A DNA stretch of 64,000 nucleotides from Candidatus Omnitrophota bacterium (GCA_030698625.1 JAUYMS010000012.1:29872-93871), one strand, 5' to 3'. Shown: positions 3,098-64,000, counted from the stretch's first letter. Notes: generated by a model from the sequence alone, not told the origin. Numbers and translations are program-made.

Positions 3098-3457
3098 ATG
3101 GCTAAACGTTTGAGGGTTGTATCCGCGATGGGACTTATTGCGGCACTGCTTTTTTTCTCGGTTACTGCGCATGCTGGGGAGGAAACCCTTGGGGATTATA
3201 GCGCAGAAATCGGCACCAAATTTGGACGAGGGCTTGTAAATATCGTATCCAGTCTTGCCGAAATTCCCTGTACCATAGCCGATGATGTAAAAGACACCGG
3301 CGCGGTTGGTTCCATCACCGGTTTTGGGAAGGGACTCGCTTTCATGCTTCGCCGTATTCTTGTCGGGGTAACGGAAGTTGGAACTTTCATGATCCCCATG
3401 GAAAGGACCATCCCGCCGGTCTGTCAGAGCCCATCACCGTCTATCGCACAGCAATAG
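3098..3457 (+). CDS. small secreted protein, TIGR04073-like putative exosortase-system-associated protein
   Basis: Signal peptide, and motifs GRGLVNIVSSLAEIP and VGVTEVGTFMIP. These resemble, from memory, the GRGxxNxxxGxxEIP / GxxExxTFPxP signature of TIGR04073. Has an RBS (GGGAGG). Confidence 0.45.
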   Translation: MAKRLRVVSAMGLIAALLFFSVTAHAGEETLGDYSAEIGTKFGRGLVNIVSSLAEIPCTIADDVKDTGAVGSITGFGKGLAFMLRRILVGVTEVGTFMIPMERTIPPVCQSPSPSIAQQ

Positions 3458-3465
3458 GTCATTGT

Positions 3466-4197
3466 GTGATACGAGAATTCCTGGAAGCGGCAAAATTTTT
3501 GACGGCCATACCGTTGCCGTCTGCGAGACACTCAGCTAAGCGTTTGGCTAAAGGGGCGCTCTTCTTCCCTGTTATCGGCCTTCTTATCGGAGTCCTATCA
3601 GTCGGTCTATACCTTCTGTTGAAACCGTTCGTCATCACCCCAGTCGCAGACTTTATCTTGCTCGCAATGCCCATTTTGCTGAGTGGGGGACTGCATTTGG
3701 ACGGATTGGCCGATACTTGTGATGGTTTTTTTGGCGGACGCACGCGTGAGGATGTGTTGCGTATCATGAAAGATTCGCGGCTGGGCGTGTGGGGGGTGGC
3801 GGGGGTCGTGGGACTGCTTTTGCTGAAGTTCGAGCTCTTGCAGGCATTGCCGTCAAAACTCCCGGTTTTTGTTCTGGCCCTTGTTCTCTCGCGCTGGGCT
3901 CAGGTCGTCTTATGCTATTTCATGTCGTATGCCGGAAACGGCGGCGGACTTGCCGATTCTGTGGTCGGCCATATCGGCATTCGGGAGCTGGTCGGCGCAA
4001 GTTTTTTTATGTGTCTCGGAGTCATAGTCCTGTCGTGGCCGGGTTTCCTGTGCCTGCTGGCCGTGATCATCCTGCTAGGGGTGCTCGGCTTTTTGTATCA
4101 GCAGCGAATAGGCGGCACAACGGGCGATACCGTGGGTGCTGCCAGCGAACTCATTGAGGTGCTTACCTTCCTCGTTGTGACGAGTATCTACCGCTGA
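3466..4197 (+). CDS. cobS: adenosylcobinamide-GDP ribazoletransferase (cobalamin synthase)
   Basis: Polytopic membrane protein with LTAIPLP and GGLHLDGLADTCDG motifs typical of CobS. Confidence 0.85.
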   Translation: MIREFLEAAKFLTAIPLPSARHSAKRLAKGALFFPVIGLLIGVLSVGLYLLLKPFVITPVADFILLAMPILLSGGLHLDGLADTCDGFFGGRTREDVLRIMKDSRLGVWGVAGVVGLLLLKFELLQALPSKLPVFVLALVLSRWAQVVLCYFMSYAGNGGGLADSVVGHIGIRELVGASFFMCLGVIVLSWPGFLCLLAVIILLGVLGFLYQQRIGGTTGDTVGAASELIEVLTFLVVTSIYR

Positions 4198-13862: not shown

Positions 13863-13888
13863 AAACCTCAAGTTTCAATTAATCGCTA

Positions 13889-13930
13889 GGCTAAAAAGAT
13901 ATAGGGTTGTCTTTTTAGCCTTTTTTATTT
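13889..13930 (+). terminator. rho-independent terminator after rpmA
   Basis: Stem GGCTAAAAAGA / TCTTTTTAGCC (13889-13920) followed by TTTTTTATTT. Confidence 0.6.
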
Positions 13931-13986
13931 CTTAAGCCAATGTCTCATCACATCAAAATAGACAAGAGAAATGGGGCGGTAGTCTC

Positions 13987-21856: not shown

Positions 21857-21858
21857 AC

Positions 21859-22683
21859 GTGAACCCCGATCGGAAACTCAAACGAGGCTTAAAAGATATT
21901 TCACCGGCTTTTTCTGAGCCAACGAAGGCCATCCCCTCTATAGTTAGGCGAGTGACGCTGGATGGGCCACCCGGTGTCACCGTGTTGAGTATTTTTAGCC
22001 CGGATTATCCCGCGGATTCCTTTTTGTTGAATACGCTGTTGGCGTCTCGCTTGGCTAATGCTCAGAGGCCGGGACACATTATATCCATCGATGCGGAGTG
22101 GGACGCCCGCCAGGCTGGGAAGGAAAAACGCATCTTTTCTCAAGAGCTGCTGAATCTTCACCTGAGACGGTCGCGTTTCTCATGGTCTCAGTTCTCTGAG
22201 ATCTGCCGCCGGCGTGTTCCTGAGACAGCCACCGTCACGGTTCCGGATCAACTCATTTTTCTGGATGTTCACTATGGCTGTGTTCCCTTTGATGAGGAAA
22301 TCGCGCCGATTCTGGACAAGTGGATATTTTTTCTCCAACCGCGAGCCGACAGTCTGAGTGAAGCCTATAAAATGATGAAGGCCACATTCGCCCATAATCC
22401 GCATCTCGAGTATTTTCTTGTGTTTGAAGGGGACTCGAAGCGCAAGCCACTCGGCCCTTATCTCTTTGAGCGCTTCTCGTCAATTTTATCCGAGCGTCTT
22501 GGCGTCAATTTAGTCTGGCTGGGATATCTGGATCCGTCCGGTGCGCCGAATGCTTCTCCTGGAGAGATCACTCTAGAACATCTTTTTTTAGGCGAAAGAC
22601 GCGCTATGGATAATCCGGCAAAAGTGGCATTGGCCGGGCTGACTGAGTTATCACTCGGTCGGTACATGTCTACAGCATCATGA
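21859..22683 (+). CDS. degenerate ParA/MinD-like protein lacking Walker A (GTG start; alternative ATG at 21778 overlaps the upstream gene)
   Basis: Collinear with the ParA fold (VTVLSIFSP..., IISIDAEWD, FLDVHYG, FFLQPRADSLSEAYKMMK) but carries no KGG-x-x-K[ST] P-loop. Confidence 0.4.
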   Translation: MNPDRKLKRGLKDISPAFSEPTKAIPSIVRRVTLDGPPGVTVLSIFSPDYPADSFLLNTLLASRLANAQRPGHIISIDAEWDARQAGKEKRIFSQELLNLHLRRSRFSWSQFSEICRRRVPETATVTVPDQLIFLDVHYGCVPFDEEIAPILDKWIFFLQPRADSLSEAYKMMKATFAHNPHLEYFLVFEGDSKRKPLGPYLFERFSSILSERLGVNLVWLGYLDPSGAPNASPGEITLEHLFLGERRAMDNPAKVALAGLTELSLGRYMSTAS

Positions 22684-30558: not shown

Positions 30559-30633
30559 CGGGATGTAGCACAGCATGGCTAGTGCGCTCGGTTCGGGTCC
30601 GAGAGGTCGCAGGTTCGAATCCTGCCATCCCGA
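30559..30633 (+). tRNA. tRNA-Pro (anticodon CGG)
   Basis: 75-nt cloverleaf: acceptor CGGGATG/CATCCCG, D-arm GCAC/GTGC, anticodon stem CTCGG/CCGAG with loop TTCGGGT, T-arm GCAGG-TTCGAAT-CCTGC. CCA is not encoded. Confidence 0.85.
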
Positions 30634-30646
30634 CTCCCATTTTCAA

Positions 30647-35093: not shown

Positions 35094-35768
35094 TTGATGA
35101 AAACGTGGCAGTTGCTTCCGGAAATAAGTGCATCGATGCCTTTTCAAATGGCTCTCGACGAGCTCTGCTTTCGAAGGGCCAAAAACGGATCCCTCACGGA
35201 ATCTGCCCCGCCCATCATCCGTTTCTATTTTTCGTCAGGGCCGTGGATTACGGTAGGTTATTCACAGACGGCGGGCGAGATTAATTCCGTACCTGTTTGC
35301 AAGAGGTTGACCGGAGGAGGTAGGGTGCGGCACGGTTCCGATCTTATATTTTCTCTTATTGCCCGCAAATCAGATCATGAATCCTTTACGTCCGTGCGAA
35401 TAAGCTATCTCAAGATCCATGAAGCCGTAAAGTCGGCTTTCGAGGCCTTAGGCCGGAGCCCGCGCATGTATCGCTGTGACGAAGAACTACCGCGGGGGGA
35501 AGATTGTTTTCGCTTTCCGATCGCAACCGATCTTTCTTTGAACGGCCGTAAAGTGGCCGGCGGCAGTCAGAAGCGCTCTTCGGGTTTTCTGCTCCATCAG
35601 GAGTCTATCCAGGATCTCCACGGCATTCCTTACCGTGATCTTATCCGGGAATTATCCCGTGCTTTTGAGCAGGTGTTCGCTGCGCGTTTGGTTTCAACGG
35701 ATCTTAGCCCGGAACTATTGCGCGAGGCGGAAGAATCGGCCGGGGCGCGAGAGGGGGTCGCTGTATGA
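35094..35768 (+). CDS. lipoate-protein ligase / octanoyltransferase family protein (BPL_LplA_LipB domain)
   Basis: IRFYFSSGPWITVGYSQ and GRKVAGGSQKR (catalytic Lys region). Immediately downstream of gcvH/P. Confidence 0.65.
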   Translation: MMKTWQLLPEISASMPFQMALDELCFRRAKNGSLTESAPPIIRFYFSSGPWITVGYSQTAGEINSVPVCKRLTGGGRVRHGSDLIFSLIARKSDHESFTSVRISYLKIHEAVKSAFEALGRSPRMYRCDEELPRGEDCFRFPIATDLSLNGRKVAGGSQKRSSGFLLHQESIQDLHGIPYRDLIRELSRAFEQVFAARLVSTDLSPELLREAEESAGAREGVAV

Positions 35769-36151
35769 AAGAGCTCGATAGCTTTCTCCATAAAATAGAA
35801 AAACTCATCGAAGAGAATGCTCAGTACAAGTATGAGGCCTACAGCTTTGTCCTGGCGGCGCTTCATTATGCCTCGTCGAGCCTGAAAAAACCCCGCCACA
35901 TCACGGGCAGGGAGCTCCTCGAGGGGATCAGGAAGTACTCCCTGGATCAGTTCGGCCCCTTAGCAAAAACCGTATTGAATTATTGGGGGATTCACGAAAC
36001 TGCCGATTTCGGCAAGATCGTCTTCGGGTTGGTCGACGCCGGAGTTTTGCGTAAACAGCCGGAAGATAAGATCGAAGATTTTGAGAACGTCTACAGCTTT
36101 GACGAGGCGTTTCACCAAGATTTTGAGATCGAGGACGACCCGTCAACGTGA
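35765..36151 (+). CDS. hypothetical protein
   Basis: A 128-aa ORF that overlaps both neighbours through ATGA/GTGA coupling. I recognise no domain. Confidence 0.4.
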   Translation: MKELDSFLHKIEKLIEENAQYKYEAYSFVLAALHYASSSLKKPRHITGRELLEGIRKYSLDQFGPLAKTVLNYWGIHETADFGKIVFGLVDAGVLRKQPEDKIEDFENVYSFDEAFHQDFEIEDDPST

Positions 36152-38202: not shown

Positions 38203-38356
38203 AAGCATTTAGACCTATTATTTAGAAGTCGTTTAACCTCTCCAATCCTAACACTCCTATCACCCACTAAAAAAAACATGATCGAAATTTTGACAAATCC
38301 ACTATGATCAGCTACTTTTAATATACTAAATAAACTATTAGCAAAAGTGGACGCAA

Positions 38357-41300
38357 ATGATGAAACACAAAAAAAGGGCGATTAGTATACTGACGCTGAT
38401 GTTCTTCATGAGCACTCAGGCCGTTGGCGCTATGCCGGCCGGTGGCATTGAGTACGCTCCGCAGGGTGAAACTCCGTCCTTCTTACAAATTGATATTCCC
38501 GACAACCTGGCTCGCGTCGAAGAAGTTTACGAGGCGCCTCCCAAGGTAGATCCGAACCTTATCCTTCACATTCAGAACGCTCACGGCAATTATGAAGCCC
38601 AAGTTAAGATCAAGGGGCTTATGGACTACCTCTATAAGAGCTACGGATTCAAGTTGTTCTTCGTCGAAGGTGCGGTCGAGAAGATGAATGCCGACTACCT
38701 CAGGTTCTACTCCGATCCGGAACGCAATCAGCAATTTGCCGATCTTCTTGCGCGCGACGGAGAACTGACCGGCGCGGAACTGTTTCTGTTGGAGGCCCCG
38801 GCAGAAGTTGAAGCGATCGGTATCGAACAGGCAGAGCTCTACAAAGCAAACTACGAGGCCTTCAAAACCGTGTATAAGGCCGAATCCGACTTTGAAAATT
38901 ATCTGAGAGATCTCGACAAGCGGCTGATGAGCTTCTCGTCAAAGGCCCTTCCGAGTGAATTGCGAAGCATTCTCGTCGAGTGGAAAAAGTTCGAAGAAGG
39001 AAGGCGGCAGTTCCTTCCTTACGTCAAGCGCCTGGCCGAACATGCCAAGCGGTACCTGGATATGGATTTACGCAGTCTTTTTTCGCAGATTGAATGGCCG
39101 CAGATTTCCCGTTTGCTTGTTTTGCAGTCTATGGAAACGGACCTCGATATCGAGGCCGGACGAAAAGAACGTGAAGGCGTCGTAAGATTCCTCAGGGAGC
39201 ACCAAGTCTCCGAAAAGCTGATAACGGCCGTGCAGGAGCTCGAAGAGAAGAAGATTCAGATGAGCCGTCTGAATGTTCGCGACGAACGTCTCGAGGACCT
39301 GCCGAGGTATCTCCTGGAACGCCTTGTAAGCGAAGCCGGGCCCAAAGGATTTAGGTTTGACGATTTTCCCGCTTTCAGTCTTTATGCCGGATACCTGGTT
39401 TTGAAAAGCGAACTGGATTCCAAACAGCTATTTCGCGAAATTGACTTCCTCTTCGACCGTATTATGAATAAGTTGGCCGTCACACCCGAAGAAAAAGCGC
39501 TCCTCGAGCTTTTTCACGACGCCGAATCGCTCCGCAAACTTTTTCACCTGGAGCTTTCCCGGCCCGACTGGCAGACCGCCGTTCGCAGGCGCAACATGAT
39601 CGAACCTTCGGTGATGGCAGAACGGGCCGCAGCCATGGATCCGGAATCCGAAGCGATTGTGGTGAAGCCCTCACTTGCGCAAGTATTCGATACGGCCTTT
39701 ACCTTCTATGACCTGGCCCGCCAGCGCGAGGCCGTTTTCCATTACACGATGAAGCAGGAAATGTTCAAGCGGGGTTTGGATAAGACCAGCGTCCTCACCG
39801 GCGGCTTTCACACCGAAGGCATGCTCGATATGTTCCGCGAAGACGAAACCAATTACGGAGTTTTGATGCCGCGCATACGCGGCAAGGTGGACCGTGAAAA
39901 TTACGTGCACACCGTCATGGGCGACAGGCCCGGCACCTTTGAGGCGTCCACCATGGAAGTTCGTTCGGGTGTTGTCAGTCCCGCCAACTTCGTCGCATCC
40001 GGCGGTGATGTCGCCCTACTCACACAGCGCAATGCGCTTAAGGTTGCAGCCGTAGACAAAGACAATGCCACTAATGCGCCAGACGGCAATCAATTTGAGG
40101 TCGTCAGAAGGACGGATGCGCTGAATAATACACCCTTTGCGCTCGATTATGGCGTTGCCTTTCTTTATGATCCCGTTCAGCAGATTGTTTACCTGTTTGT
40201 TGCAGGGAAACCGTTAAGAGTTGACGGGCAGTATCTTGCCGTCGCAACGGCACTGGTTACCAACCGGGTAAATCGCAGTGAGCTTCGTTCCCTCGATGAT
40301 CGTTTGCTGCGCATACCGCAGGCGCCGTCACGGAAGCTACTCGACGACCTCGCCGGGATCCTTGGCGAACAGGAAGTTGCCAGAAACAAACGCCGCCGTG
40401 AGCAACAGCCGCTCGGTACGCGCCCGGACAGCCGAACCGGTCTCGTTCTCCCTGACGGCGGGGTCACTGCACCTGCCTCCGGTGTGGCTCGTGTAGATAA
40501 CGGCCTACTGGTTTCAGAAACGGCCGGACAGCTTGTCGGTGTTGATGGTCAAGTGATTTCGTCGGCATCAAGACGCGTAGTTGCCGTCTCCGGTTTACAG
40601 ACAATACCCGCACAGACAATTGCTGCGGATCAACCGCCCACGCCGCCGGCAGGAATCCCGGGGCTCGATTTTCTACTTGGAAGGGATGGCCTAGATATAC
40701 AAACCGCCGTGAGGGGAGTCGTCGGCGCGAGTGCCTTACAACAAGTTCCTTTCTTAGGGGACGTTGCCGGCTTTAGAGGCGTTGGGGCCAATCTCCTGCG
40801 ACAGTTGGTTGAGGATCAACGCGAACCGCCCTCGGCCGATAGAGTGCGTGCGATCGTCAGCACGAGCGGCACGGCTGGTATTGTATCTCGCAATGGTTCG
40901 GTCGCGCAGTTTCAAACTGATCTCACAGCCATTGTTCTGGCCGTCAGCCAGAACCAGGATCCGAAGCTTGTCACGGCCCGCAATGCATTGCGCGCTCTCG
41001 CACCGGGAACACCGTCGCATACAACGAATGTCGTGGATGCTTTAGAGCTTACCCGATCTGAGCTGCGTACCGCTAATGTCTTTCTCCTATCATTGGACCA
41101 GCCTTCGGCCGTTACTTATTTTGCTCTGTTACCGGCACAGGCGACCCGAGAGCAGATTACCGCGGCGCAGGATGGCTTTGACACGATTCTCAGTAAATTC
41201 GCTGCGACGACCCTGGGGAGGGCACCCGGGCTTAGCGTGAAAGTTGTGCCCGCGAGCCGCCGCGCCTTGCAAAAGGCCGCTATACAGGCTACGGCTTCGG

Positions 41301-41734
41301 CTTATGCGAATCTATTGAGCAGATTTGTGGATAATATCGCCGACCTCAGCAAAAATCATTCGCTGACAACCGTACGTCCTGACGGTCAGAGAGTTCTGGA
41401 TCAGGCGGGCATCGACATTACGCTTGCGATCACACAAACGCTGCTTACTACGACAGCGATCGCGGCTACTGACTTAAGCGACAAAGAAAAGAATGCAGTC
41501 CTTATTCTGGGGGCCAGCATCGCGGGACAAATGGTTGCGGCCGAAAAGTTGGATGAGGTCGGTGCCGAACGCCTACTGACGATTGCCAGCAGCTTGCGTG
41601 AAGACGTTAAAGCCGCGATCGATGCTTTCCAAGATAAATTCGGTATCAATCCTACGGGATTTAAGCTATTTAGCAGCGCAGCGGTGCTCGTACAAGCCCT
41701 TGCCGCCCTCGAAGAACTCGCCAAAGCCGCGTAA
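38357..41734 (+). CDS. large secreted protein of unknown function (1125 aa)
   Basis: Signal peptide MMKHKKRAISILTLMFFMSTQAVGA. The N-terminal ~500 aa is of mixed composition and the C-terminal ~600 aa is A/V/T/G/L-rich with few charged residues. I recognise no domain. Preceded by a ~150-nt AT-rich region. Confidence 0.5.
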   Translation: MMKHKKRAISILTLMFFMSTQAVGAMPAGGIEYAPQGETPSFLQIDIPDNLARVEEVYEAPPKVDPNLILHIQNAHGNYEAQVKIKGLMDYLYKSYGFKLFFVEGAVEKMNADYLRFYSDPERNQQFADLLARDGELTGAELFLLEAPAEVEAIGIEQAELYKANYEAFKTVYKAESDFENYLRDLDKRLMSFSSKALPSELRSILVEWKKFEEGRRQFLPYVKRLAEHAKRYLDMDLRSLFSQIEWPQISRLLVLQSMETDLDIEAGRKEREGVVRFLREHQVSEKLITAVQELEEKKIQMSRLNVRDERLEDLPRYLLERLVSEAGPKGFRFDDFPAFSLYAGYLVLKSELDSKQLFREIDFLFDRIMNKLAVTPEEKALLELFHDAESLRKLFHLELSRPDWQTAVRRRNMIEPSVMAERAAAMDPESEAIVVKPSLAQVFDTAFTFYDLARQREAVFHYTMKQEMFKRGLDKTSVLTGGFHTEGMLDMFREDETNYGVLMPRIRGKVDRENYVHTVMGDRPGTFEASTMEVRSGVVSPANFVASGGDVALLTQRNALKVAAVDKDNATNAPDGNQFEVVRRTDALNNTPFALDYGVAFLYDPVQQIVYLFVAGKPLRVDGQYLAVATALVTNRVNRSELRSLDDRLLRIPQAPSRKLLDDLAGILGEQEVARNKRRREQQPLGTRPDSRTGLVLPDGGVTAPASGVARVDNGLLVSETAGQLVGVDGQVISSASRRVVAVSGLQTIPAQTIAADQPPTPPAGIPGLDFLLGRDGLDIQTAVRGVVGASALQQVPFLGDVAGFRGVGANLLRQLVEDQREPPSADRVRAIVSTSGTAGIVSRNGSVAQFQTDLTAIVLAVSQNQDPKLVTARNALRALAPGTPSHTTNVVDALELTRSELRTANVFLLSLDQPSAVTYFALLPAQATREQITAAQDGFDTILSKFAATTLGRAPGLSVKVVPASRRALQKAAIQATASAYANLLSRFVDNIADLSKNHSLTTVRPDGQRVLDQAGIDITLAITQTLLTTTAIAATDLSDKEKNAVLILGASIAGQMVAAEKLDEVGAERLLTIASSLREDVKAAIDAFQDKFGINPTGFKLFSSAAVLVQALAALEELAKAA

Positions 41735-41740
41735 CCGTCA

Positions 41741-41762
41741 ATTTTCCCGCCGGCGGGAAAAT
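41741..41762. terminator. bidirectional intrinsic terminator (perfect palindrome TTTCCCGCCGGCGGGAAA flanked by A/T)
   Basis: aTTTTCCCGCC GGCGGGAAAAt between convergent genes. The T-run on + and the A-run on + give T-tracts on both transcripts. Confidence 0.55.
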
Positions 41763-42443
41763 TCAGCTACCACCTTCCATTCTTTTGAGCAGGGCTTCCA
41801 TCTTTTTCTGCGGCATCATGTCTCCGTTTTCGGTAGCGACCTGAATCCCTCGTTCGTAAATTTTACGCGCCTTGGCCTTATCCCCAAATGCTTCCAAAGC
41901 CATTCCCAGGCCCAGATACGACGAGGTATGCTTTGCGTCTACCTCGATCGCTTTCTCAAAAGTATCCATAGCCTCGCGCTTTTTTCCGGACTCGAAATAG
42001 GCCGTCCCTAAACTGTAATAGCCCAGGACATCGGCAGGATCGATTTCGATCACCTGTTTAAAACGTTCGATTCTCTCCGCATGATCCACTTTGGGCATTT
42101 CCGCTTGCTTGGATTTGAGTTCTGACTTCCAGGTGAGCCGGCGCGCTTCATTCTGCTCGTCTTCGGCTTCGAGGATCATCTCCTTGGCGACATAGCAGCG
42201 GGAAAGATTGGTGTGAGCCATAATGCAGTTCGGGTTTAGCTTGACCCACTTCTTCGTGCAGGTGATGGCCTCGTCGTATTTTTTCTGATTATAAAGAATG
42301 ACTGAGAGGGCTTCGTGGGCGTCTTCGAATGCGGGATGGGCGGCAATGACGCGGTTTAATTTCTCGATTGCGGCAGCATTGCGGTCGTGACGAAAGTCTT
42401 CGAGGGCTTCTTGGTAGAGTGGCGGGATTTCCTTACTGCTCAT
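41763..42443 (-). CDS. TPR repeat protein
   Basis: Multiple 34-aa TPR-like repeats (AHTNLSRCYV..., GYYSLGTAYFESGKKREAMDTFEKAIEVD..., SYLGLGMALE...). Confidence 0.6.
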   Translation of the reverse strand: MSSKEIPPLYQEALEDFRHDRNAAAIEKLNRVIAAHPAFEDAHEALSVILYNQKKYDEAITCTKKWVKLNPNCIMAHTNLSRCYVAKEMILEAEDEQNEARRLTWKSELKSKQAEMPKVDHAERIERFKQVIEIDPADVLGYYSLGTAYFESGKKREAMDTFEKAIEVDAKHTSSYLGLGMALEAFGDKAKARKIYERGIQVATENGDMMPQKKMEALLKRMEGGS

Positions 42444-42744
42444 TCAGGCCTAATTTTTTCTTGCCTTCCTCGCTGATGCGTTCGGGTGTCCAGGGCGGAT
42501 CAAAGACGAGCTCCACATCGACATCTTCGGTGCCGCAGGTCTCCACAATTTTGTTGCGCAGTTGGGCCGGAATCTCCTGTGCTGAGGGGCAGGATTGAGA
42601 GGTTAGCGACATACGGATCTTTACGGCGCCGGAATCGGGCGCGGCCTCAATGTCGTAGATCAAACCCAGGTCCCAGATATTTACGGGAATTTCGGGGTCA
42701 AAACACAGCTTGGCGGCTTCGATTACTTGTTCTTTGGTAGGCAT
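42433..42744 (-). CDS. SufT/DUF59 (MIP18-family) Fe-S cluster assembly protein
   Basis: CFDPEIPVNIWDLGLIY ... TSQSCP motif typical of DUF59. Confidence 0.7.
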   Translation of the reverse strand: MPTKEQVIEAAKLCFDPEIPVNIWDLGLIYDIEAAPDSGAVKIRMSLTSQSCPSAQEIPAQLRNKIVETCGTEDVDVELVFDPPWTPERISEEGKKKLGLNEQ

Positions 42745-62334: not shown

Positions 62335-62571
62335 TCCTTAACTCTTTATAATGTAATATGTTAAAGTCATATTCTGAAGGTCTGAGCAAGACGTTTTTCG
62401 GCTCGAAAAAAAAGAAAAAAAAAGAGGGCGGGTCCCTTGTATTACCTAATACCCCATGCTATATTTGCTCTAGATCCCAAACGTGAGAAGTGAGCCTAGT
62501 TAAATTAAGAGATATTAAAAGTGCTTAAAAAAGACCCCAAACATAATTTAGACCAAGAAAGGAGGCAGCTT

Positions 62572-62964: not shown

Positions 62965-63013
62965 CATCCGCAGCATCCCATAGCTTGCTATTCCTGCACC
63001 CGATTCATTCTCT

Positions 63014-64000
63014 ATGACGTTATCTGCTGTTCTCGCGATCGATCAGGGAACAACCGGGACAAGAGCAATACTCTACAGTTCTTCAGGCCGTCAGCTTGCG
63101 GCTGCTTACCAGGAATTTCGTCAATATTACCCCAGACCAGCCTGGGTCGAACATGATCCCTCCGAAATTTGGAAGTCCACAATTTCCGTTATCAGAAGAG
63201 CCCTTCAATCCGCGCGCCTTACAGGCGCTAGCATTGCCACTATCGGTATTACTAATCAGCGCGAAACTACAGTTTTGTGGGACAGGCGAACGGGTCGTCC
63301 TATAGGAAGGGCTATTGTTTGGCAGGATCGTCGCGGGGTTGTGGTCACAGATCGCTTGAAAAAAAGTGGACTGGAAGCCGTTTTTCGTCAGAAAACGGGA
63401 CTTGTCCTGGATCCCTATTTCTCAGGCCCAAAGATCGCTTGGCTTTTACAGCACGTTTCCGGTTTAAGACGAAGGGCAGCTCGTGGTGACATCTTTTTTG
63501 GGACCATTGACTCATGGCTCCTTTGGAAACTGACAGGCGGAAAGGTTCATGCTACCGATGTGACTAATGCCTCTCGAACACTTCTGTATAACATCCGCAG
63601 ATTGTGTTGGGACTCAGAGCTTATGAAAATCCTCAGAGTGCCAGCGACTATACTCCCCGAAGTCTATGAGTCAGGTACTCAGTTTGGCGCCACGGTGAAG
63701 CAGGGGCCCCTCATTTCAGGGATTCCGATCACGGCGATTATGGGAGACCAACAAGCGGCTTTGTACGGCCAGGCCTGTTATCGACGGGGAGAGACCAAGA
63801 ACACATATGGGACCGGTTGTTTTGTAGTCCAGAATATAGGCAAGCACATTGGGAGAATGCCCTTTGGGTTGTTGGTGACCGTTGCTTGCGATGAGGCAGG
63901 AAAGCCGGTGTACGCGCTTGAGGGATCCATCTTTATTGCCGGTGCGGCCGTACAATGGCTTCGTGACGGCCTTGGTTTTTTTAAACATGCCGGAGAAACG
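63014..64000 (+). CDS. glpK: glycerol kinase, N-terminal ~329 aa (continues beyond window; absent from the ORF track because it has no stop in the window)
   Basis: My own translation from the ATG at 63014 is stop-free to position 64000: MTLSAVLAIDQGTTGTRAILYSSSGR...WVEHDPSEIW...ITNQRETTVLWDRRTGRPIGRAIVWQDRR...GTIDSWLLWKLTGG...MGDQQAALYGQ. Confidence 0.85.
   Translation, partial: MTLSAVLAIDQGTTGTRAILYSSSGRQLAAAYQEFRQYYPRPAWVEHDPSEIWKSTISVIRRALQSARLTGASIATIGITNQRETTVLWDRRTGRPIGRAIVWQDRRGVVVTDRLKKSGLEAVFRQKTGLVLDPYFSGPKIAWLLQHVSGLRRRAARGDIFFGTIDSWLLWKLTGGKVHATDVTNASRTLLYNIRRLCWDSELMKILRVPATILPEVYESGTQFGATVKQGPLISGIPITAIMGDQQAALYGQACYRRGETKNTYGTGCFVVQNIGKHIGRMPFGLLVTVACDEAGKPVYALEGSIFIAGAAVQWLRDGLGFFKHAGET

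Follow-up and report, generated by a model that had tools for sequence, protein, structure and literature searches.

The TIKI superfamily includes ChaN, EreA/B/C, Bcr135/136, TraB-PrgY-GumN, the Tiki metalloproteases and RRSP. The core of the fold is a parallel β-sheet with flanking helices, and the active site is composed of two His and two Glu residues (2His/2Glu), as represented by H85 and E113 of Bcr135 and by H3902, E3930 and H4030 of RRSP (PMC6254334). The Omnitrophota are ultra-small, probably host-dependent bacteria with very large and mostly unannotated proteins (PMC10066038; bioRxiv 10.1101/2023.11.21.568195; 10.64898/2026.06.07.730766). The giants of the latter two preprints include 'archaeovorins' and dockerin-type proteins. 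Here we describe a gene in a stretch of 64,000 nucleotides (nt) from a Candidatus Omnitrophota bacterium (GCA_030698625.1, JAUYMS010000012.1:29872-93871), which is called the window below and is numbered from its first letter. The open reading frame (ORF) begins with ATG and occupies 38357–41734 on the + strand, encoding 1125 amino acids (aa) plus a stop codon, as an earlier reading of the sequence alone (the sequence-only reading) had reported. The product is 100% identical to the hypothetical protein Q8R76_01905 of a Candidatus Omnitrophota metagenome-assembled genome (MAG). The ORF product is close to the minimal form of a very large and uncurated family, in which an N-terminal head and a C-terminal tail are conserved and whose named records are almost all from Candidatus Omnitrophota. 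Its product is probably an exported TIKI-like hydrolase, either a peptidase or an esterase, from this undescribed head–tail family.

The gene had been regarded as an orphan. However, when 1.84 billion cluster representatives were searched exhaustively with phmmer, 6452 of them matched at E ≤ 1e-3, 4185 at E ≤ 1e-10 and 802 at E ≤ 1e-30. A word-seeded search gave 91 homologs with E-values down to 7e-206; almost all of those with a named source come from Omnitrophota. Among the 150 phmmer matches listed, the matched proteins are 480–7498 aa long, and the best-matching stretch lies within query residues 1–711 and, in the matched protein, at the very N-terminus, up to residue ~720; the similarity spans query residues 1 to ~535 and reaches ~640–710 in a few of the closest relatives. 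When one genome per GTDB species was scanned with the motif Q[NDT][AVL]H[GA][NS][YFP][EDQ]AQ, 224 loci were confirmed. The best 80 of the 224 loci are labelled Omnitrophota throughout or otherwise belong to MAGs without a taxon label. Several genomes have three to five copies of the family, and no second copy (paralog) of the ORF product was found within the window. Judged from the named records, the lineage specificity proposed in the sequence-only reading is supported at the level of the phylum. For the full protein, no match above threshold was found in Pfam, and searches of NCBIfam, PADLOC and PDB sequences gave no usable match. Thus, the earlier remark that no domain is recognized holds for the curated libraries.

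The N-terminus, MMKHKKRAISILTLMFFMSTQAVGA followed by MP, shows the pattern of a Sec-type signal peptide (residues 1–25, 38357–38431, + strand), with a basic n-region, a hydrophobic core and a V-G-A site; the cleavage predicted from this pattern is between AVGA and MP. The hydrophobic core is the top Kyte–Doolittle window of the protein (1.61), and no hydrophobic segment of transmembrane (TM) grade was found beyond the signal peptide in the 1125-aa protein. The N-termini of other family members have a like layout with AxA-type sites (SVYA/V, TCWA/IP, AVSA/AP and others), and residues 1–535, comprising the signal peptide and then the head, can be aligned to the N-terminus of each listed homolog. 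In the model calculated by AlphaFold2 (AF2), a helix of residues 2–24 is followed by a disordered stretch of residues 24–42. The ORF product is very probably exported, in agreement with the secretion that had been proposed, since the pattern is conserved across the family. In the mechanism proposed here, the Sec system would export the protein and the signal peptide would be cut after A25.

The head domain (residues 45–522, 38489–39922, + strand) is present at the N-terminus of every homolog and consists of an α/β core with a helical insertion. The AF2 model of residues 1–640, calculated with an alignment of 60 sequences, has a predicted local distance difference test score (pLDDT) of 87.3 and a predicted template-modelling score (pTM) of 0.83, and the pLDDT of the head is about 90. 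The strands 52–58, 68–74, 100–103, 152–155, 476–482 and 499–505 alternate with helices. An all-helical insertion of ~310 residues (159–472, 38831–39772, + strand) is located between the strands 152–155 and 476–482, and 64% of the head is helix. The conservation was counted over 199 retrieved family members, which were also used for the C-terminal counts below. Seven residues of the head are kept in 197–198 of the 199: H76 (38582-84), E104 (38666-68), E157 (38825-27), R457 (39725-27), and G482, G483 and H485 (G482-G483-x-H485, 39800–39811), all on the + strand. According to the AF2 secondary structure, these residues are located right after the core strands, at the C-terminal ends of the strands.

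By eye, the motifs of the head resemble the GxxH...E...R...GxxHxxG pattern of TIKI proteins, TraB, ChaN and erythromycin esterases, and the relationship was therefore tested. Head cores of 68 diverse members, in which residues 45–160 were joined to residues 439–522 and the insertion was removed, were searched against Pfam one by one. PF04187 (ChaN, with the Pfam label 'Tiki superfamily') matched 11 of the 68 cores, with a best E-value of 1.4e-4 and bit scores below the cut-off of 27.7. PF18950 (DUF5694) and PF18934 (DUF5682) matched six cores each and PF05139 (erythromycin esterase, Erythro_esteras) matched two, all below threshold. In an earlier Pfam scan, PF01963 (TraB_PrgY_gumN) matched one of nine sequences, also below threshold (E 0.14). 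DUF5694 and DUF5682 presumably belong to the TIKI clan; a literature search for the two families found nothing. According to the nine per-sequence Pfam tables, all hits to these five families cover the stretch R457...GGFH485, which for ChaN, DUF5694 and TraB is matched by the C-terminal part of the profile. Matches to unrelated Pfam families are almost all to single members, the exceptions reaching three or four members, and when the same 68 cores were searched against NCBIfam as a noise control, no family had more than three matches.

In a Foldseek search of the head model against the PDB, EreC (6xcq, 6xcs) and the Bcr135-type structure 2rad are among the top 22 of 350,542 chains, with E-values of 0.39–1.8. 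The spacing between H76 and E104 is 28 residues, which is identical to that between H85 and E113 of Bcr135 and between H3902 and E3930 of RRSP. The residues of the 2His/2Glu motif, (E)-x-H behind the first core strand, Glu behind the next one and GxxH near the C-terminal end, are found in the query as H76, E104 and H485 (GGFH), except for the residue two positions before H76, which is Asn; in the family this residue is Asn in 100 members, Asp in 66, Thr in 17 and Ser in 11. Like the TIKI superfamily, the head as modelled has the strand–helix order of the core, with invariant residues right behind the strands, and it has a C-terminal G-x-x-H-x-x-G (GGFH485TEG) after a conserved Arg. Unlike the superfamily, the head has a core that is split by the ~310-residue helical insertion, and it is fused to a family-specific tail; the named records of the family are nearly confined to one phylum, and the sequence, profile and Foldseek matches to the superfamily are not significant.

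The likeness to TIKI proteins may be spurious, in which case the head would share a short motif only and would represent a new, mostly helical fold. We consider this rather unlikely. Every direct test was below threshold or negative, in the nine per-sequence tables four of the five TIKI-related hits span only ~40–50 residues at R457...GGFH485 while the fifth (TraB) is the weakest, and the high helix content of the head fits a helical fold. On the other hand, four or five families of one superfamily are matched repeatedly and the noise control is flat, and erythromycin-esterase structures appear near the top of the Foldseek list. The His–Glu spacing is identical, and the order strand-His, strand-Glu, ..., strand-GxxH agrees.

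Several results weigh against the assignment of the product as an exported TIKI-like hydrolase. The TIKI-related Pfam matches are all below the gathering thresholds, and the full protein has no match. When PDB sequences were searched by hmmsearch with three family profiles (A1, A2 and A3), no TIKI-family chain was found, and the matches were noise only (14-3-3, IFIT5 and similar). By hhalign, the head gave an E-value of 0.34 against Escherichia coli YbaP alone and 0.12 against a TraB profile; this profile is shallow (number of effective sequences, Neff, 2.2) because its homology search returned only Enterobacteriaceae at ≥59% identity. The best Foldseek E-value of the head model against the PDB is 0.26, and the TM-scores are ≤0.25. 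The query has Asn where the 2His/2Glu motif has the first acidic residue. ChaN, the closest of the sub-threshold families, binds haem and is not an enzyme. The model of the tail is of low confidence, with residues 825–1125 as alternating helices and strands at pLDDT 45–67. Inactivity is known among proteins with the TIKI fold, for example in PMT (PMC6254334). Lastly, some large members of the family have domains usually located in the cytoplasm, such as histidine kinase/receiver and kinase domains, which is awkward for the export of the whole chain. As some larger members also have extra hydrophobic segments, the topology may differ between members.

The significance test for membership failed, and the head is therefore called a probable, very divergent relative of the TIKI superfamily and is not filed as a member. 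A hydrolytic function of the head, as opposed to binding only, is less probable than this relationship. Were the head non-catalytic, it would be a ChaN-like binder of haem or another cofactor, or a PMT-like inactive TIKI fold, and the product would be a periplasmic binding or scaffold protein. This would agree with ChaN as the most frequent of the sub-threshold families, with the absence of an acidic residue two positions before H76, and with the existence of inactive TIKI-fold proteins (PMC6254334). Nevertheless, nearly all members, at identities of only 22–55%, retain the two His, two Glu and one Arg residues at the ends of the core strands. Such invariance is typical of catalytic sites, though a conserved metal or ligand site would look alike, and we judge a non-catalytic head to be unlikely. 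If the product is a hydrolase as we propose, the head would act in the cell envelope as a peptidase or an esterase, and the chemistry would be performed by the invariant H76–E104 pair together with H485, E157 and R457.

The C-terminal half was examined in a full-length AF2 model calculated with 34 orthologs (pLDDT 69.6). A small α+β domain follows the head (residues 540–683, 39974–40405, + strand; pLDDT 76–93). It can be aligned only to residue ~640, and only with the closest orthologs. The next segment, residues 684 to ~812 (40406–40792, + strand), is predicted to be a disordered, low-complexity linker; the pLDDT is 26–44 over residues 684–824 (~140 aa), and no homolog aligns over it. Residues 536–1125 are predicted as 49% helix, 11% strand and 40% coil, and the tail as 60% helix and 9% strand. 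The composition of this half had been described as rich in Ala, Thr, Val, Gly and Leu and poor in charged residues, and the counts agree: the five residues account for 51% of residues 536–1125 and 33% of residues 31–535, and charged residues for 20% and 31%, respectively.

From this composition, the sequence-only reading suggested a β-rich surface or secreted fibre or adhesin, lineage-specific or acquired. The signal peptide and the lack of a curated domain would agree with this. The strand content is low, the linker is predicted to be disordered, and no tandem repeats were found in the ORF product; therefore, a β-helix or a fibre is not supported. Together with the evidence on composition, synteny and the downstream hairpin given below, these features make the fibre or adhesin highly improbable. 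Autotransporters and large repetitive adhesins do resemble the family, in that a Sec signal at the N-terminus and a conserved domain of ~300 residues at the C-terminus enclose a variable middle. Unlike autotransporters, however, the ORF product has no predicted β-helix passenger or β-barrel and no repeats, the C-terminal residue of the family is Ala and not aromatic, and the N-terminal domain is conserved and enzyme-like.

The tail domain (residues ~813–1125, 40793–41731, + strand), which ends with an amphipathic helix and -KAA-COOH, was delimited by profiles that do not contain the query. Five seeds were used, giving 86–101 sequences per profile, and 20 shuffled sequences and the reversed sequence served as controls. 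The five profiles align residues ~813–1125 end to end with 10–26 bits and E-values of 2e-5 to 3e-10 (single target), while the controls give ≤5.7 bits. Narrower profiles without the query gave 7–8 bits, and the one seeded with the homolog P0005 (four iterations) failed. A jackhmmer search from the tail of the query itself recruited nothing, and a profile of the C-terminal halves of close orthologs matched the query only weakly. The C-terminal halves of the orthologs of ~1,000 aa show mutual identities of 25–28% over ~480 residues, and the query is far more diverged. With iterative profiles made from the last 400 residues of giants of the family (4799 and 7498 aa), the tails of small members are recovered, and vice versa. 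According to these profile comparisons, the tail is a real, family-wide domain of ~300 residues. No recurrent Pfam family for the tail was found in nine full-length orthologs. In a Foldseek search with the full model, which is of low confidence, GT-B glycosyltransferases dominate with E ≥ 0.05, which is not significant; we read these matches only as 'α/β, Rossmann-like'.

An -SA or -AA end is present in 148 of the 199 members, and the last residue is Ala in 159; the end of the query is -KAA. Most of the members without an -SA or -AA end look truncated or partial. Over the ~25 residues before the C-terminus, hydrophobic positions occur at −22, −18/−19, −15, −11 and −5/−4. Small or nonpolar C-termini, for example -LAA, are recognized by tail-specific proteases. 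The analogy to the ssrA tag and to recognition of the Prc type is functional only: the extreme C-terminus of the family, [S/A]-A-COOH, is likewise small or nonpolar, and it follows a helix with hydrophobic periodicity; in contrast to these systems, the tail is encoded within a 300-aa domain and is not an added tag, and no protease or PDZ partner was identified. In the proposed mechanism, the tail and its invariant C-terminus would be a recognition or sorting element for a partner.

Complete-looking members are found from 923 aa up, and therefore the query is close to the minimal form. Between the head and the tail, other members have 0 to >6,000 variable residues, and the query has the small domain and the linker only. 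Some of the larger members contain histidine kinase/receiver, kinase, phosphoenolpyruvate (PEP) mutase or WD40 domains, all usually cytoplasmic, and aldolase and methyltransferase domains also occur in some family members; in two large members (2963 and 2001 aa), no domain was found by Pfam at E ≤ 1e-5. As a separate observation, a WD40 β-propeller is located in the middle of P0093 (4799 aa), at residues ~3200–3530.

The gene had also been suspected of horizontal acquisition, and this possibility was rejected on the basis of GC content, GC content at third codon positions (GC3), codon usage and synteny. The gene has a GC content of 0.54 and a GC3 of 0.59, values typical of the window (overall GC content 0.52, median GC3 0.587), and in codon-usage deviation it ranks 45th of the 46 genes of the window. 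The gene order in the window is GcvT/H/P, LplA, an ORF of 128 aa and UvrD, followed by the gene, and then, in the convergent direction, a TPR gene and a DUF59 gene; the neighbours were confirmed. The homologs P0005 and P0011 lie in the matching context of GcvT/H/P, LplA, a 125-aa ORF, UvrD, the family gene and a convergent TPR gene, and downstream of P0005 the DUF59, acyltransferase and Exo_endo_phos genes are also kept. Among the fetched loci, uvrD is immediately followed by a co-directional family member in at least 17 distinct genomes, with identities of 37–55% for the head and 57–67% for UvrD; the convergent TPR gene is kept in five of the 17. Native composition and conserved synteny are what the sequence-only reading itself had named as the sign of a core gene. 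The gene is core, positionally conserved downstream of uvrD, and not acquired. At this uvrD-adjacent position (L001, L002 and L004–L051), the family protein ranges from 923 to >2,600 aa among genomes. These lengths indicate that the region between the head and the tail expands and contracts at one orthologous locus.

One interpretation of the variable middle is that the head and the tail are bookends for the export, anchoring or processing of a variable cargo, and that the present gene is a version without cargo. The C-terminal helix with [S/A]-A-COOH would then be a sorting or recognition signal, read perhaps by a protease of the PDZ type or by a secretion component, and the head would process or retain the protein. 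One pair of head and tail frames proteins of 923 to 7498 aa, the protein next to uvrD alone varies from 923 to >2,600 aa, and the C-terminal Ala is widely kept, all of which would fit. However, no partner gene is conserved beside the locus, where the neighbours are housekeeping genes, and nothing ties the family to a particular secretion system. We consider this interpretation unlikely. In a broader form, the head and the tail could be the ends of a previously unrecognized modular system of the Omnitrophota for building, exporting or processing large envelope proteins. This idea is speculative, and we would give it a low probability. In this system, the head would be a TIKI-type peptidase or esterase, and the tail with its invariant [S/A]-A end would serve for sorting or recognition. 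Any cargo of 0 to >6,000 residues could then be inserted between the ends, even at one locus, with the present gene as the minimal chassis.

The Omnitrophota giants of the two preprints resemble the family in the phylum of origin, the signal peptides, the largely unannotated N-terminal regions and the variable length, and aldolase, methyltransferase and kinase domains occur in some head–tail members as they do in giants. As criteria for giants of the archaeovorin or dockerin type (West-Roberts et al. preprint), we took a length of >30,000 aa, many TM helices, and the presence of a SecA-DEAD, C39, S8 or dockerin domain. In contrast, the ORF product has 1125 aa, no TM helix past the signal peptide, and, according to Pfam, no SecA-DEAD, C39, S8 or dockerin domain. 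Term searches of the two preprints found no TIKI, TraB or esterase, nor any account of a conserved head or tail; in one of them, the N-terminal regions are stated to be generally without identifiable domains. A phylum-wide head–tail architecture with a TIKI-like domain is probably new.

Thousands of Omnitrophota proteins of ~1,000 to ~7,500 residues have one head, whose invariant site resembles that of an enzyme, and one tail with an invariant end, and neither domain is in Pfam or NCBIfam. A member of ~1,000 residues with almost nothing between the head and the tail is of a size suited to expression, assays and structure determination, and with it the function and the sorting of these proteins become directly testable. 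The annotation shifts from an orphan hypothetical protein, possibly acquired, to a core member of a defined family and a putative exported TIKI-like hydrolase. The gene itself is an ordinary core gene, yet it leads to a family that is very large, uncurated and conserved at both ends. If the modular-system interpretation were true, the gene would be a tractable entry point to the handling of the outsized proteins of the phylum.

Upstream of the ORF, the intergenic region of 154 nt that follows the uvrD-like gene (38203–38356) has a GC content of 0.32, the lowest among the intergenic regions of ≥30 nt in the window, so that the AT-rich island described in the sequence-only reading is real. The hexamer TTGACA, also described there, is located at 38290–38295 on the + strand as an exact match to the −35 consensus. 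The surrounding sequence TTTGACAA is invariant in a three-way alignment with the orthologous intergenic regions of L001 and L002. The −10-like hexamer TACTTT (38313–38318, + strand) of the inferred promoter follows after 17 nt, and the corresponding hexamers at equal distance from the −35 are TATTCT in L001 and TATCTT in L002. Thus, an element of TTGACA, 17 nt and TAnnnT is conserved in two orthologous loci. A σ70 consensus scan, for which the criterion was TTGACA and TATAAT with a spacing of 16–18 nt, did not call the site at 38290–38318, because TACTTT fits TATAAT at only three of six positions. The conserved element points to a likely promoter upstream of the ORF, and the gene looks like the stand-alone transcription unit that had been proposed. 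An RNA element in either flank was considered and rejected, as no Rfam match was found. Two more AT-rich intergenic regions with a GC content of 0.35 are present at 13863–13986 and 62335–62520, and these may be other promoter regions.

Downstream, a perfect palindrome of 24 nt, AATTTTCCCGCCGGCGGGAAAATT (41740–41763), is located between the ends of the convergent genes and shares one base with the TPR stop codon. The sequence-only reading had reported it as a perfect palindrome of 22 nt at 41741–41762; the palindrome is real, and its extent is 24 nt. It is the sole fully (100%) complementary one with arms of ≥13 nt in the window, and the chance expectation is 0.004 per 64 kb. The palindrome, which is not due to chance, is the one further feature that would favour the earlier combination of a fibre or adhesin gene with a bidirectional intrinsic terminator. 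It folds into a stem of 10 bp with a loop of 4 nt (−11.7 kcal/mol); behind the hairpin, the + strand reads CAGCUACC and the − strand GACGGUUA. In an intrinsic (Rho-independent) bidirectional terminator, both transcripts have a U-tract after a GC-rich hairpin. Here, the T-run is 5′ and the A-run is 3′ of the GC core on both strands, which is the reverse of the canonical arrangement, and neither transcript therefore gains a U-tail. No U-tract was found 3′ of the hairpin on either strand, and the terminator scan made no call. The palindrome is not a canonical intrinsic terminator, contrary to what had been proposed; it could be a U-less terminator, an RNA-stabilizing hairpin or a protein-binding site. 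It is not conserved: it is absent from L001, in which the convergent genes abut, and in L002 the called coordinates of the convergent genes overlap.

Further observations concern other parts of the window and other loci of the family. In a second family context, that of another paralog group, PheS, PheT, a RarA-like AAA ATPase and then a PilZ protein of ~280 aa are encoded upstream of the family gene. The PilZ gene (PF07238, E 8e-7) lies a median of 177 nt upstream on the same strand, at L015:5059–5898 and at 21 other loci among L004–L083. PilZ neighbours are also reported for giant genes of Omnitrophota. In the window, an ORF of 128 aa (35765–36151, + strand) overlaps its LplA-like and uvrD-like neighbours with its start and stop, and L001 and L002 have a 125-aa ORF at the matching position; no Pfam or PADLOC match was found for the 128-aa ORF. 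Two regions, 21857–22679 (823 nt) and 62965–63715 (751 nt), have no ORF of ≥90 aa in a crude gene call and no Rfam match at the gathering score, and may hold small genes or unknown elements. The tRNA-Pro (CGG) gene at 30559–30634 (+ strand), the only RNA gene detected in the window, is located just upstream of the glycine-cleavage operon. The acyltransferase ORF, with a mechanically assigned TTG start at 42727, shares 18 nt with the beginning of the divergent DUF59 gene (42744), and its true start is probably further downstream than 42727.

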